In this document: positions 22,026 to 30,359 of the stretch, piece by piece
Position numbering within the stretch: the stretch's first letter is position 1
Layout of the letters: every line of letters begins with the position of its first letter
Notes under the pieces: generated by a model
What the model saw: only the letters and a program-made list of their open reading frames with translations
Database searches by the model: none
What the model was told of the DNA's origin: nothing
Assembly: GCA_964016885.1 (NCBI GenBank)
Contig: OZ024741.1
Span: 231,012,001 to 231,076,000 of the forward strand
Length of the DNA stretch: 64,000 nt
From: Eledone cirrhosa
Taxonomy: Eukaryota
Direction of reading: 5' to 3'
Translations under genes and position numbers: made by a program

Positions 22026-22108
22026 ACCTTTACCGATCGGTTTCGAATCTCAAACATAAACGGAGACCATACGGCCTTCGTTGCAAAGAAAGATTCTCGT
22101 CAGAAGGT
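22026..22108 (-). ncRNA. Type I hammerhead ribozyme (family A, copy 2)
   Basis: ACCTT CTGACGA GAATCT..AGATTC GAAAC CGATCG GTA AAGGT on the minus strand. Confidence 0.85.
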
Positions 22109-22263
22109 TCTTTTAATTCGAAGAATCCGCCCTCTGCCTCTATCTTTACTTCGGCCCTTGAAAAAATTGATTCCACTTCATTCACTCTCATCTCGGGAAC
22201 AGTTTTGGATAGGGCTAGTTCGTAATTTAAATTCAGGAATTTTATATTCTTCGAATGAAAAGA

Positions 22264-22346
22264 ACCTTCTGACGAGAATCTTTCTTTGCAACGAAGGCCG
22301 TATGGTCTCCGTTTATTTTTTAGATTCGAAACCGATCGGTAAAGGT
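22264..22346 (+). ncRNA. Type I hammerhead ribozyme (family A, copy 3)
   Basis: Stem I ACCTT/AAGGT; core CTGACGA 22269-22275; stem II GAATCT/AGATTC around a ~40-nt loop; GAAAC-CGATCG-GTA. Predicted cleavage after A22341. Confidence 0.85.
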
Positions 22347-23411: not shown

Positions 23412-23505
23412 TAACGAAGGAAATGTGGTAAGGAACCAGGTGGACCATAACGCACCAAAGTACTCAATACTTGAGGTAGTAGAGTGGGTAATAGGAACCA
23501 GTAAG

Positions 23506-23599
23506 ACCCCGACAGCTGAGCTCAAGCCGTTTCGACGGCTAATTCTGGACTAAATGAACATTTATCCTGGTATTTAAATAGCCGATCTTCTCAAGGGGT
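23506..23599 (-). ncRNA. Type I hammerhead ribozyme, U3-A8 core variant (family B)
   Basis: Mirror image of 24728-24821. Confidence 0.8.
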
Positions 23600-24727
23600 A
23601 ATTCCATATATGGTCAAAGTGATTGTCAAAAATCAGTAGTAATTCTGTGGTTGCAAATTAGTAGGGGAGATGGTGGCTAAACCTGCCAGTAGGAGAAAGA
23701 GGGGAGGGGGTGGAGTAGACCCAATCAAGCGTTGGTAGTGCCAGCTACAGCTGGGCATGAGGTCAAAGAAGATACAGGGGAGGGGGAGGGGGAGGAAGTC
23801 GGAACGGTAGGTAGAACAATGGGGGGTAAAAATAGGAAAGAAAAAATACTGAGAGTAAAGAAAAGCAAAAAAGTGTAAAGAAAAAATTAAATTCTACGAC
23901 CTAGGTGTCAGGCTATTGTTAGGCGAGAATAAAATAAAGAAAGAAAGAAAGAAGTAAATAAATAAATAAATAAATAAATAAGGAAATAAGTAAAAGAACT
24001 AGGTGGGACGAATTAAGCAAGGACCCTTTTAAGAGGTATAAGTACGTAAATGATACGGTGACTGGTCAACAAAAGGGGCCAAAATACTAAAGAGACTACC
24101 ACGAAATAAACAATAAAGGTTTCCATCCCGGGCCAGCAACGACCCAGTGCAACAAAGTGAACTTGTACGACATAATAATTCTGAGTCCCGGGAAAAATAT
24201 ATACTAATGCTAACTCTAAAAGATCTAAAACAAGCTACATGAAAGTTCGTACGAAATAAAGGTAGTCACCGTATCATTTACGTACTTATACCTCTTAAAA
24301 GGGTCCTTGCTTAATTCGTCCCACCTAGTTCTTTTACTTATTTCCTTATTTATTTATTTATTTATTTATTTACTTCTTTCTTTCTTTCTTTATTTTATTC
24401 TCGCCTAACAATAGCCTGACACCTAGGTCGTAGAATTTAATTTTTTCTTTACACTTTTTTGCTTTTCTTTACTCTCAGTATTTTTTCTTTCCTATTTTTA
24501 CCCCCCATTGTTCTACCTACCGTTCCGACTTCCTCCCCCTCCCCCTCCCCTGTATCTTCTTTGACCTCATGCCCAGCTGTAGCTGGCACTACCAACGCTT
24601 GATTGGGTCTACTCCACCCCCTCCCCTCTTTCTCCTACTGGCAGGTTTAGCCACCATCTCCCCTACTAATTTGCAACCACAGAATTACTACTGATTTTTG
24701 ACAATCACTTTGACCATATATGGAATT

Positions 24728-24821
24728 ACCCCTTGAGAAGATCGGCTATTTAAATACCAGGATAAATGTTCATTTAGTCCAGAATTAGCCGTCGAAACGG
24801 CTTGAGCTCAGCTGTCGGGGT
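24728..24821 (+). ncRNA. Type I hammerhead ribozyme, U3-A8 core variant (family B)
   Basis: Stem I ACCCC/GGGGT; core TTGAGAA 24733-24739; stem II GA(T)CGGCTA/TAGCCGTC; GAAAC-GGCT-TGAGCTC-AGCT-GTC. Predicted cleavage after C24816. Confidence 0.8.
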
Positions 24822-24835
24822 CTTACTGGTTCCTG

Positions 24836-25071
<236 letters not shown>

Positions 25072-25125: not shown

Positions 25126-25162
25126 ATATAAGATCAAAAGATGGTTAAAGGAGTTCCATGTA

Positions 25163-25229
25163 TTTTATTATGCGCATTTCAAAAACAAACATCATCATGC
25201 AATAATATTTGTGTTTTCATCAGATAAAA
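25163..25229 (-). ncRNA. Type I hammerhead ribozyme (family C) in PLE 3' end
   Basis: Stem I TTTTAT/ATAAAA; CTGATGA; ~15-bp stem II AAACACAAATATTATT/GATGATGTTTGTTTTT; GAAA-TGCGCA-TA. Confidence 0.85.
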
Positions 25230-26116
25230 CAGGAGAACATGATATGAAGGCTAAAAAACACTTGTGGATAGTGCAGTTTTAAATCAACATATGAAAAGTG
25301 GTTTTCGATTGATGTGTGATATTGGGAAAAATATTTTATTTAGAGAGGGGGGGTGGAAAGGATGAAAAAGGGGAGGAGATGAGAGGGAGAGATGGGTGAT
25401 AGAGAGAAAGAAAGAGATCGTTTTTATAACTGAGAGGAGATATATTGTTTTACATAGAGAGGTTGAAAACCGTTGGAAGATAATGTATAAATTAAAAATT
25501 TGAAATTAACGAAGGGAGGATATGTGCGAGGAAAGAATATTTTATTTATGGAGGGGGGGGGGTGAAAAAAGGGGGAGGAGATGAGAGTGAAGGTGGAGAG
25601 GGAGAGATGGGTGATAGAGAGAAAGAGATAGTTTTTATAACTGAGAAAAAGATATATTGTTTTACATAAATTAAAGGAATTTGAAAATCAACGAAGGGAA
25701 TTTATGTATGAAGATAGAGAGAAAAAATAATAATTGTGGATGAATATTCTAACGTCAAAAAAAGTGTGTGTTGATAAGTATTGTGGCAATTTCAAAATTA
25801 ACGAAGAGAAAAATTATTAAGGTTTGTGTGTAGAAGGATTTGAGAAAAATAATGTGAAGTTAAAGTTTGTATATTGAAGGAATTGATAATATATGCGAAT
25901 AAAGAAGGATTTGAGAAAAATAATGTGAAGTTAAAGTTTGTATATTGAAGGAATTGATAATATATGCGAATAAAGAGTTAATATGTATTAAGAATGAGTT
26001 CGTTGATGGGGAGAAAAAAAAAAAATAAATTAAGGATGAAATTGAGATTAAAAAGATTTATGATAGAGAGAAAAAATAATAATGATTGCGGATGAATATT
26101 CTAACGTAAAAAAAAA

Positions 26117-26151
<35 letters not shown>

Positions 26152-26326
26152 ATGTATATGTTATGAAGGATTTTACAAGGTGAAGATAGAATGAGAGTAA
26201 TGAGTAAACAAGTATTATAGAGTGTATAATGCCCTTTAAAGTAAGGTGGGAAGATGGGTATATTTTAAAGAGGTGTATGTATATGTGCCTTTGAGAAAAG
26301 ATTCTAAATTGATAAAGAATTGAATA

Positions 26327-27133
26327 TTAACTGTATACTTTGTGAAAAGTCCTATGGAATTTATGGAGGCAGATAGAAAATAAATCTGTACGTCTATTTA
26401 TTATAGACTCTAGGTTAGAGATAATGGTAAATTTTTCATTTAGGCAGAGATTACAGATTTTAGATAGAGAGCTGTTCAAGTATGAGGATGCAGAAGAAAC
26501 CTTCTTCCAAAAGATGGTATATTTAATGTTTTTGTCTTTTAAGGAGCATATGAGTTCTGAGAGAGCAGTGTTGGTTCTTTTAAGTTTGTATTTGAAAGAT
26601 GAATGATGATTATAGAGACGAGCTTTAAAAGAGGTGGAAGTGGAGCCAAAATAGGTGAAGGAATTGGTGCTAGTTATAATTTTACATTCATAAATTAAGT
26701 TTTTATCGAGACAATGGTTGTTGAGAGGACATTTATTTTTAATGCGGCAGTTGCAATTAGAGAGATTATTAATGAGTGACCTAGTGTTATCTATAGAAGG
26801 AATTGGATTGGAGAAGTTGTTTGCGATAGGAATAATAGGAATAATAGTTTCTTGATTTACAGTTGGATTATGAACATTTAGCGAAGTTGTGTTTGACGTT
26901 GTATTTGTGTTTACAGAAGTTAGCCTAGGGTTTACAATGACGTCGGGAGTACTATTACTGTTATTATGAAATTCAATGTTGGAAGGAAGAGATTTAGTAT
27001 TTAGTATTTTATTGTTGTGTTTAGAGATGATGTTGGAAATATTGGAGGATGTAGAATAAGAAAATTTGATGGTGTGTTTGTTAAATATTTTACTATAGAT
27101 ATGTGAGGGAGGGAAGCATTTATTTAAGGCACT
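26327..27133 (-). pseudogene. PLE linker + GIY-YIG endonuclease (open frame, 5'-truncated)
   Basis: FPPSHIYSKIFNKHTIKFSYSTSSNI...CNCRIKNKCPLNNHC..NLIYEC..TYFGST.TSFKARLYNH..NTALS..CNLCLNEK. The ORF track's N-terminus is only (TA)n read-through. Confidence 0.9.
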
Positions 27134-27134
27134 A

Positions 27135-27210
<76 letters not shown>

Positions 27211-27363
27211 TATATATATATTTAAAGTATATGATAAACACGAAATGTGTTTACATTGCAACAGACAAAGTTAGCTATTAATGAAATAAACTAACAAAAG
27301 TGAATACAATTTGTCTGTCTCGATACAAGTCAATAAAGACAAGCCTATATTGGCAACAGCCAT

Positions 27364-27540
27364 GATTCCTGGACATATTTAAATTTCAAAATTCAAACCT
27401 GTTCTGTAGACGAATTTGAACCTCGAAACCCAAATAAGTTTCGCAATGGTGGAATGTGAATTGAAAAATAAAGAGAATCGAAATGGAATAGAAATAAAAG
27501 AGTGAAATATCCAAATCATCTGTGCATATCAACAGGAATC
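27364..27540 (-). ncRNA. Large variant hammerhead candidate (family D)
   Basis: Reverse complement of the 28179-28355 fold. A further copy at 27921-28090 is cut at stem I by the inversion. Confidence 0.65.
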
Positions 27541-28178
27541 CAGTAAGATTAGTCTATCTCACATCAAAGATTTTGCAGGACTGACTACACGTGGGTAGGC
27601 AGGCCAAAACTAGCTATCCCACATTCACGGTGCTAGAAATAACAGCCGCTTATGCAGGATTAAGGATCAGCTCTTACAATAAAGGAGCTATACATTATAT
27701 TATATTTTGAGAATAAACTCTCAGTCGTTTATAGTAATTAAGCTCCAGGAAGGGGCTCTTCCGAGCAGTTAAATACATTTAAAGTATATGATAAACACGA
27801 AATGTGTTTACATTGCAACAGACAAAGTTAGCTATTAATGAAATAAACTAATAAAAGTGAATACAATTTGTCTGTCTCGATACAAGTCAATAAAGACAAG
27901 CTTATATTGGCAACAGCCATGATTCCTGGACATATTTAAATTTCAAAATTCAAACCTGTTCTGTAGACGAATTTGAACCTCGAAACCCAAATAAGTTTCG
28001 CAATGGTGGAATGTGAATTGAAAAATAAAGAGAATCGAAATGGAATAGAAATAAAAGAGTGAAATATCTAAATCATCTGTGCATATCAACGTGAATGTGG
28101 GATAGCTAGTTTTGGCCTGCCTACCCACGTGTCGTCAGTCCTGCAAAATGTTTGATGTGAGATAGACTAATCTTACTG

Positions 28179-28355
28179 GATTCCTGTTGATATGCACAGA
28201 TGATTTGGATATTTCACTCTTTTATTTCTATTCCATTTCCATTCTCTTTATTTTTCAATTCACATTCCACCATTGCGAAACTTATTTGGGTTTCGAGGTT
28301 CAAATTCGTCTACAGAACAGGTTTGAATTTTGAAATTTAAATATGTCCAGGAATC
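28179..28355 (+). ncRNA. Large variant hammerhead candidate (family D; core UUGAUAU)
   Basis: Stem I GATTCCTG/CAGGAATC (8 bp); core TTGATAT 28187-28193; stem II GCA/TGC around ~77 nt; GAAAC; ~23-bp G-U-rich stem III extension; GTC 28345-28347. Confidence 0.65.
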
Positions 28356-28735
28356 ATGGCTGTTGCCAATATAAGCTTGTCTTTATTGACTTGTATCGAG
28401 ACAGACAAATTGTATTCACTTTTATTAGTTTATTTCATTAATAGCTAACATTGTCTGTTGCAATGTAAACACATTTCGTGTTTATCATATACTTTAAATG
28501 TATTTAACTGCTCGGAAGAGCCCCTTCATGGAGCTTAATTATTGTAAACGACTGAGAGTTTATTCTCAAAATATAATATAATGTATAGCTCCTTTATTGT
28601 AAGAGCTGATCCTTAATCCTGCATAAGCGGCTGTTATTTCTAGCACCGTGAATGTGGGATAGCTAGTTTTGGCCTGCCTACCCACGTGTAGTCAATCCTG
28701 CAAAATTTTTGATGTGAGATAGACTAATCTTACTG

Positions 28736-28912
28736 GATTCCTGTTGATATGCACAGATGATTTGGATATTTCACTCTTTTATTTCTATTCCATTTCAATT
28801 CCCTTTATTTTTCTATTCACATTCCACCATTGCGAAACTTATTTGGGTTTCGAGGTTCAAATTCGTCTACAGAACAGGTTTGAATTTTGAAACTTAAATA
28901 TGTCCAGGAATC
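28736..28912 (+). ncRNA. Large variant hammerhead candidate (family D)
   Basis: Tandem copy 557 bp downstream of 28179; one stem III G-U pair is G-C here. Confidence 0.65.
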
Positions 28913-29141
28913 ATGGCTGTTGCCAATATAAGCTTGTCTTTATTGACTTGTATCGAGACAGACAAATTGTATTCACTTTTATTAGTTTATTTCATTAATA
29001 GCTAACTTTGTCTGTTGCAATGTAAACACATTTCGTGTTTATCATATACTTTAAATGTATTTAACTGCTCGGAAGAGCCCCTTCCTGGAGCTTAATTATT
29101 GTAAACGACTGAGAGTTTATTCTCCAAATATAATATAATAT

Positions 29142-29240
<99 letters not shown>

Positions 29241-29250
29241 TATATGTATG

Positions 29251-29284
<34 letters not shown>

Positions 29285-29314
29285 ATGTATGTATATATAT
29301 ATATATATATATGT

Positions 29315-29386
<72 letters not shown>

Positions 29387-29388
29387 TG

Positions 29389-29429
<41 letters not shown>

Positions 29430-29528
29430 GTATATATATATATGTATATATATGTATATTATATATGTATATATATGTATATATATATATATATATAATA
29501 TATATGTATATGTATATATATATATGTA

Positions 29529-29574
<46 letters not shown>

Positions 29575-29592
29575 GTATATATATATCTATAC

Positions 29593-29623
<31 letters not shown>

Positions 29624-29666
29624 CATATATATATCTATACATATATATACATATATATATCTATAC

Positions 29667-29715
<49 letters not shown>

Positions 29716-30359
29716 TAGATATATATATGTATATATATATATTAGAAAGTGAGGCTTTTCTTTGGGGTTTTTTTTTACAGAATGAAAATAACCGAGGTGT
29801 CCTACACGAGTGAAAGTATAAAGAAAAATAGATGAAATCGAAAATGCAACTGAGTCTTATTTTTAAAACCAGAACAATTCTCCCATCCCATTTCTCTTGA
29901 CCATTATATTTTTCTTGTCATAAAACTCTCTGAAAAGGCTACAGAATGGATTTCCAAATACGGGCGCGAAATTTAATGAAAACTTGTTCACGTGACAGCC
30001 ATAATTTCATTTATAACCAATCAAGTTACGTTTATAAAAAAAAAGCCTTCGTGAGCCCCTGTTTTAAGTAAAAAGAAATTCAAACACTCATATATGAAAA
30101 GACAACCTGAGCCCCCCTCCCCACGTTTTTTGAAGAACTTTGTAACGCGAACTGGCACGAAATTTATTATAATTATTGACCAACCAATCAAATTACTTCT
30201 CTAAAAACCTGGCTTTTCGAGCCACTTTTTTCCATATAAAACAAGCAACATTCAAAGTCCAACCAGATGTGATAAAAAACCACAGACCCTCCATCTCAAC
30301 TCTACTTTTGAAAAGCAGAAAACTGTGAAACCGGTAAAGGATCCAAATAAATATATATA

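Follow-up and report, generated by a model that had tools for sequence, protein, structure and literature searches.

Hammerheads with a U3-A8 pair are a natural swap reported by Perreault 2011 and also by Cervera and de la Pena 2014, whose examples include the exact UUGAUAA core carried by most copies of the repeat family described below (family A). Large-helix-III monomeric hammerheads of Penelope-like elements (PLEs) have been described from fungi and protists (PMC4209133), and Hydra PLEs in molluscs are already published. For the Anolis PLE, PMC11167929 reports that the tail is the gap between two RT start sites of the purified protein, that both DNA strands are cut and extended, and that the hammerhead needs protein. 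Hammerhead mutants of this element still insert in vitro, so that insertion can proceed without cleavage, and PLE hammerheads have been suggested to be passengers (PMC8557442). Regarding the core itself, one deep-mutagenesis study found low activity for all double mutants around 3-8 but C3G/G8C.

Here we describe a 557-nt repeat from a 64,000-nt stretch of DNA (the window). It fits a non-autonomous, retrozyme-like element that is likely moved by a Hydra-clade Penelope enzyme.

Results

Architecture of the locus and of the motif

The repeat sits between two TA tracts, with a minus-strand arm of ~1.6 units joined to a plus-strand arm of ~1.9 units at ~28090. The first-pass annotation had described a 557-bp repeat; the period is indeed 557 bp, but the region consists of these two inverted arms and is not a plain tandem. 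The unit contains no ORF (longest ATG ORF, 46 aa). Unit positions (u) are counted from u1 = 28084.

27135-27221, no strand: left (TA)n target tract (sequence)
27213-28096, minus: left arm, ~1.6 units (u97-557, then u1-423), with its short 3' end against the TA tract; the end at ~27221 is blurred by TA microhomology
28090-28096, no strand: inversion junction, reading ATTCACG for ATTCCTG on the minus strand, which removes the 5' stem I arm of the fourth motif copy (sequence)
28090-29144, plus: right arm, ~1.9 units, with a tailed 3' end; the true end, ~29129, is blurred by TA
29064-29144, plus: tail of 81 nt (u424-504) that separates the two fixed 3' ends (arm-end counts)
29128-29742, no strand: right (TA)n target tract (sequence)

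The motif has the topology of a type I hammerhead, with a three-way junction, an open stem I and an NUH site between stems III and I. Its copies and parts are as follows.

28179-28355, plus: complete type I hammerhead-like motif, 177 nt (descriptor match and sequence reading)
28736-28912, plus: second complete hammerhead-like motif (descriptor match)
27364-27540, minus: complete hammerhead-like motif (descriptor match)
27921-28090, minus: incomplete copy, core and stem III kept, 5' stem I arm disrupted (95.9 bits, against 117-118)
28179-28186, plus: 5' strand of stem I, 8 bp, partner 28348-28355 (sequence)
28187-28193, plus: 5' core TTGATAT, that is U3 U4 G5 A6 U7 A8 U9 (sequence and alignment)
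28194-28276, plus: stem II, GCA/TGC, 3 bp (28194-28196 / 28274-28276), with a 77-nt loop (sequence)
28277-28281, plus: 3' core GAAAC, that is G12 A13 A14 A15.1 C15.2 (sequence)
28283-28343, plus: long stem III hairpin, 23 bp (28283-28305 / 28321-28343), 16 Watson-Crick and 7 G-U pairs (sequence)
28345-28347, plus: GUC triplet; cleavage is predicted 3' of C28347 (by analogy with type I hammerheads)

Positions follow hammerhead numbering, in which A9 has its role opposite G12. G5, A6, G12, A13, A14, A15.1-U16.1, H17 and a paired 3-8 (U-A) are all found in the window copies, and position 9 is U in place of the A of type I hammerheads. The 8-bp stem I directly brackets TTGATAT...GAAAC...GTC, and the G-U-rich stem III pairs along its whole length, both as first annotated. 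The same annotation had counted four variant copies. TTGATAT is present in all four, but only three of the motifs are complete: in the minus-strand copy running from 28090 to 27921, the inversion junction has removed the 5' arm of stem I. The loop of stem II is ~40 nt longer in the window copy than in the sister subfamilies to which it was aligned. Helix III, a 23-bp non-palindromic hairpin, differs from the absent or palindromic 1-2 bp helix of dimer-dependent PLE hammerheads.

Relatives and core states

The genome (3.0 Gb) carries a superfamily of the repeat, which was counted by exact sequence patterns; the more distant families were reached by such patterns only. There were 592 matches for family A, 200 for type B, 258 for the canonical-core types C-E (CUGANGA plus G10.1-C11.1) and 427 for the 3' half common to the families, and reversed-pattern controls gave 0 in every case. 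In C-E the CUGANGA is followed by G10.1 and loop II has ~30 nt, while family A has ~40 extra nt in this loop. The type B core is UUGAUGA or CCGANGA, and the pair 10.1-11.1 is mismatched in most copies. Among 100 B-type matches listed of the 200, assigned by eye, 46 are U3.G8, 37 C4, 1 U8, 15 U3-A8 with G10.1 and 1 canonical; 84 of these 100 carry U3.G8, C4, U8 and/or a non-G base at 10.1. U4C, U3.G8 and a mismatch at 10.1-11.1 thus occur in lineages that were amplified too, and with departing cores in 84 of the 100 listed copies amplification does not need a textbook core. Wherever A8 occurs among the 100 listed B-type copies, U3 and G10.1 are also present (15/15).

In family A, 89 of the 100 matches listed of 592 have UUGAUAA and 11 have UUGAUAU (tallied by eye), and A9 is found in every sister subfamily aligned. 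A9U is a sublineage trait, present in ~11% of the family among the listed matches, and is not family-wide. The novelty claimed at first for U3-A8 together with A9U is narrowed accordingly: both are there in the window copies, but U3-A8 had already been published and U9 is a minority state of the family. An unrooted tree built from the sequence 3' of G12 places the types in the order canonical, C4, U3.G8, U3-A8 and family A, with one long branch and no outgroup. The canonical core is assumed to be ancestral, the direction being taken from other hammerheads. The U3-A8 / G10.1-C11.1 state joins family A on this tree and looks like a restoration of core pairs. Subfamilies A and B are found in a single TA tract at one locus (L010, 11-639 and 1331-1943), and among the loci read, TA tracts often contain nested PLE insertions.

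Conservation and covariation

The structure was evaluated on 23 representatives hand-picked across subfamilies, one of them (L145) included as a partial sequence. Pairing cells were paired in 94.0% of cases, compared with 89.9±0.5 in shuffled alignments and 15-55% with slid partners; the sequences are akin, so cell counts overstate events. Two-sided changes were seen at four of the eight stem I pairs, at pair 3-8 (CG in 16, UA in 5, UG in 2) and at pair 10.2-11.2 (AU in 14, CG in 9), and 10.1-11.1 is GC in 19 of the 23. Covariation across genomic copies, as the first-pass annotation had envisaged, is therefore present in stem I, 3-8 and 10.2-11.2, but the total of seven two-sided pairs lies within the shuffle range (154/500 shuffles) and stem III shows no two-sided change among the 23 representatives, its variation being one-sided and mostly by transitions. 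RNAalifold recovered stems I and III unprompted, and did not recover stem II.

Recurrent and rare changes were compared in 53 A and 46 B copies, types C-E having been removed by the length filter and rare changes being presumed to postdate insertion. Pairing is preserved by 6 of the 7 changes common to at least three copies and by 19 of the 55 rare ones (p=0.014). Recurrent sites in family A number 0/67 in stem III and 11/148 downstream (p=0.015). Because GAAAC and GTC were part of the search anchors, the constancy of the 3' core is to some extent a product of the search. The canonical-core sisters, together with covariation of stem I, 3-8 and 10.2-11.2, argue for homology to type I hammerheads: by comparison of its copies, the window motif is a hammerhead homologue, real and well supported. 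Regarding the G-U pairs of stem III, their reading as fossils of A-to-I editing was discarded; among rare stem III substitutions, A>G and T>C numbered 1 and 3 in family A, 7 and 11 in B, and 3 and 2 in C-E.

Folding of the motif

A relaxed type I descriptor with a stem I of at least 7 bp gave three matches in the window and none in any of 12 shuffles (12/12). The sense strand folds with a z-score of -2.63 (2/200 shuffles equally good) and the antisense strand with 0.00, and stem III is more stable in the sense orientation in all 23 representatives (-11 to -25 kcal/mol, compared with -1 to -10 kcal/mol antisense). The folding models support the earlier proposal of a strand-specific RNA hairpin, with stem III stable on the sense strand only. 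Predicted pairing probabilities are 0.96-1.0 for stem I, 0.64-0.99 for stem III and 0.002 for stem II, and the hammerhead fold lies 3.4 kcal/mol above the MFE. The GCA/TGC stem II noted at first, around ~77 nt, is thus correct by sequence (exactly 77 nt, closed by G10.1-C11.1) but barely predicted thermodynamically. The circular 557-nt monomer has a folding z-score of -3.3 (30 shuffles).

Rfam yielded no hammerhead at the gathering score or at E<=10 over the window. Rfam does miss the motif, as had been expected of standard searches, but it also misses canonical-core hammerheads at 22031-22341, and its failure is therefore not peculiar to the variant core. These belong to a third inverted repeat family in the window, with canonical (CUGACGA) type I hammerheads at 22269-22341 (plus) and 22031-22103 (minus), both absent from the Rfam results. 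Animal genomes hold hammerheads of 130-180 nt that are missed by Rfam.

Ends and layout of the insertions

Arm ends were surveyed at 100 loci, yielding 91 distinct arms at an 88% identity cut after older copies, duplicates and arms touching a sequence edge had been dropped. The 3' ends are fixed: 42 at u420-424, 39 at u500-504 and 10 elsewhere, with TA directly after 83 of the 91 arms. The fixed end defines the sense strand without recourse to the hammerhead, and that strand is the one on which the hammerhead lies. The 5' ends are scattered, and none of the 91 lies at the cut site, u265, the nearest being at 272 and 276. Several arms are about one unit long with 5' ends in TA-like parts of the unit, which microhomology explains. 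Thirty-four insertions are two-armed; both ends are regular in 31 of them, and all 31 combine one short and one tailed end.

The longest arm has 1061 nt, bar one of 1941 nt, and all arms but one are shorter than two units plus the tail. The exception, a single arm of 3.5 units (L130, 708-2648), has two variants only in two adjacent turns, a pattern that suggests a later DNA duplication. Variants are common to the turns of one insertion in 36/162, compared with 213/3959 between loci (20 arms). In 40 scored matches, from a query that favours such copies, the 3' end of the unit directly joins its own 5' start. The unit and its head-to-tail joint are also present in four contig sets of unrecorded kind, in which ends and strand are not readable.

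The insertions therefore show the 5' truncation, partial tandem, inverted arm, optional tail and AT-rich target of Penelope-mobilised sequences. As in non-LTR retrozymes, the tandem unit is non-coding and has one type I hammerhead, its 557 bp lying outside the size of that class (about 150-450 bp). The start of the tail (u424-445; 28510-28530 in the window) contains a small GCTC...GAGC hairpin, with a GGAA loop in family A; by eye, B and D seem to retain its arms around longer loops. It is a candidate enzyme-binding site.

Neighbouring Penelope-like elements

Beyond the left TA tract, on the minus strand and 86 nt from the unit, lies the end of an endonuclease (EN) ORF.

25130-27135, minus: 5'-truncated autonomous Hydra-type PLE, with the end of its GIY-YIG ORF at 26327-27135 and its own 1.2-kb 3' UTR; outside the repeat (sequence)

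Its family is young and autonomous, with an 821-aa frame, and has the DKT motif, a CxCX5C linker (CNCRIKNKC) and a TA target, features that fit the Hydra clade by sequence. In the neighbour's ORF the RWK position reads RWT, and Pfam GIY-YIG gives E=0.014, below the cut-off. A tail of ~82-86 nt, close in length to that of the unit, is found in 13 of 29 copies of the autonomous family. Full-length 821-aa Hydra-type RT-EN frames at five loci (L231-L235) are 97-99% alike over the EN part, and so were probably active recently; their tail equals the 5' start of the element. By eye, a minimal hammerhead (CUGAUGA, palindromic helix III AUGCGCAU) is seen at ~25162-25230 on the minus strand, near the 3' end of the neighbour.

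The adjacent GIY-YIG ORF was considered as the ORF of the repeat itself and rejected: it is absent from 28 other unit loci, and the 3' UTR of the EN family has no match to the unit at 29 other loci. The neighbour shares no sequence with the unit and thus entered this TA tract as an insertion of its own, and it exemplifies the kind of enzyme that likely moves the repeat. A search for a sequence-related autonomous master gave only short AT-rich matches among the autonomous loci compared, model searches had no match in L231-L235 or in the searched loci of a second PLE family, and no contiguous RT and GIY-YIG ORF with a unit was found in the sampled loci. Nine unit loci contain other PLE protein fragments; none of the seven read downstream (all but L141 and L166) enters a co-oriented unit.

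The second PLE family is represented in the window by the 3' end of an autonomous Hydra-like element at 23413-24836, with inverted arms (571 nt, 100%), one of them tailed by ~80 nt. Its hammerhead (24728-24821, plus) has U3-A8 (UUGAGAA) and a long stem II, and its MFE structure has the hammerhead shape. A first look gave 446 candidates for this hammerhead, and related loci have an EN ORF upstream. Within 7 kb of TA tracts there are at least four families of PLE type that carry hammerheads.

Discussion

We consider it probable that the unit is an ORF-less, high-copy (TA)n repeat with a type I hammerhead homologue whose stems are enlarged, likely a non-autonomous retroelement whose RNA is copied by a Penelope RT-endonuclease of the Hydra clade. 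Slow cleavage of the monomer is predicted after C28347. The plus strand of 28090-29144 would be transcribed into a multi-unit RNA. Owing to the 23-bp stem III, a single motif of this RNA would fold on its own and cleave at GUC; the 557-nt monomers released in this way may then be closed into circles by ligation. From the modelled hairpin it is reasonable to infer that the window hammerhead would not need dimerisation. The derived U3-A8/U9 core and the 3-bp stem II would make cutting slow or protein-assisted, and cleavage would not be rate-limiting for copying. The Penelope enzyme would cut both strands of a TA tract and prime cDNA from each end, using one start site per end on a single RNA, where the two sites are spaced by 81 nt; the two cDNAs, joined by microhomology, would form the inverted two-armed insertion.

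Apparently crippled cores were amplified, stem II is barely predicted and none of the 5' ends coincides with the predicted cut; the window copy is therefore likely to be cleaved slowly, and its cleavage may be dispensable. The activity of a copy with the UUGAUAU core is doubtful. The need of the Anolis hammerhead for protein, and the insertion of its mutants, agree with these broken-looking cores and with the 5' ends. The same element could then be a relic whose hammerhead is dead: stems I and III would persist because they shape the RNA or bind the enzyme, and uncut read-through RNA would be copied. The three departures from the consensus and the weak stem II speak for such a relic, as do the arms, all but one below two units plus tail, and the unimpaired in vitro insertion reported for the Anolis mutants (PMC11167929). 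We hold it to be rather unlikely, since the 15 listed B-type copies with A8 all have U3 and G10.1 as well, the U3-A8 / G10.1-C11.1 state that joins family A on the tree looks restored, and active U3-A8 ribozymes have been reported (Perreault 2011).

Two other explanations concern the origin of the unit. Tandem and inverted layout, tail and a hammerhead near the 3' end are PLE hallmarks, and there is a minus-strand EN ORF at a distance of 86 nt, so the unit might be the pseudo-LTR (3' end) of an autonomous PLE, possibly the one with the adjacent GIY-YIG ORF. We judge this very unlikely: a TA tract separates the two, the EN family has its own, unmatched 1.2-kb 3' UTR, the ORF is missing at the 28 other unit loci, and the unit joins its own 5' start (in matches that the query favours). 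A hammerhead shape that arose by chance, in a repeat of satellite type spreading through DNA recombination, for which the AT-rich sequence and the signs of DNA-level duplication in the 3.5-mer could be cited, is largely refuted by the canonical-core relatives, the covariation, the strand-specific fold, the fixed 3' and ragged 5' ends, and the rule of one end of each kind in 31 of 31 insertions; we give it almost no credence. The preferred reading remains that of an RNA-copied, non-autonomous element.

A bolder extension of this reading is only tentatively proposed. The superfamily may present, within one animal genome, the successive states of a giant monomeric hammerhead as a living allelic series: first the canonical core, next U4C and U3.G8 together with a mismatch in stem II, after them a restored U3-A8 and finally U9. 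All states would have stayed mobile, the U9 form would still cut and circularise the 557-nt RNA, and a dimeric Penelope enzyme would copy the circle from two fixed starts, one per end of the DNA break. If true, the series would be a ready-made natural test of whether hammerhead cleavage matters for PLE retrotransposition. The contemporaneous subfamilies differ mainly in core bases and have dozens to hundreds of copies each, so that cleavage rate can be set against copy number. In addition, the strict end rule offers a genomic handle on two-ended priming. The components are already known individually (U3-A8, large helix III, animal retrozymes, Hydra PLEs), and the surprise is therefore moderate.

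Comparison with known systems

The literature covered, with few subscription papers among it, yielded no A9U or natural U9 hammerhead, no description of the repeat itself, no comparable range of core states and, from animals, no non-autonomous element whose helix III has 23 bp; the Hydra hammerhead drawings of PMC8557442 may hold similar long-stem motifs.

Metazoan non-LTR retrozymes (Cervera and de la Pena 2020, PMC7229834; Li et al. 2026, bioRxiv 10.64898/2026.07.22.740005) resemble the unit in their non-coding head-to-tail arrangement, single type I hammerhead, low GC and self-paired monomer, and their dependence on PLEs is likewise inferred. They are expressed as circles of ~170-400 nt and occur in long arrays with a helix III of 1-2 bp, whereas the unit has 557 nt, lies mostly in inverted two-armed insertions of less than two units, and has a 23-bp helix III and a variant core. 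The U3-A8 type I hammerheads of Cervera and de la Pena 2014 are alike in topology near the 3' end of the element, and UUGAUAA is listed there for Schistosoma. Unlike them, the hammerhead of the unit has a long, non-palindromic helix III, an 8-bp stem I and no extra base after position 9, with U9 in one sublineage, and its superfamily has a short stem II with a 35-77-nt loop.

The hammerheads of fungal and protist EN-minus PLEs, such as that of Serpula lacrymans (PMC4209133), have in common with the unit a large helix III and no recognisable loop 1-loop 2 contact. Monomeric cleavage was demonstrated for Serpula, whereas here the cut is predicted, and the unit differs from this type in being an animal, non-autonomous, TA-targeting element with a non-canonical core. 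Finally, Hydra-clade PLEs (Craig et al. 2021, PMC8557442), whose type (DKT, CxCX5C) occurs in the same genome, share (TA)n targeting, partial tandem and inverted insertions and a tail at one end; in contrast to them, the unit encodes no RT or endonuclease, and its tail is ~81 nt long, compared with the 30-40 bp described for PLEs.
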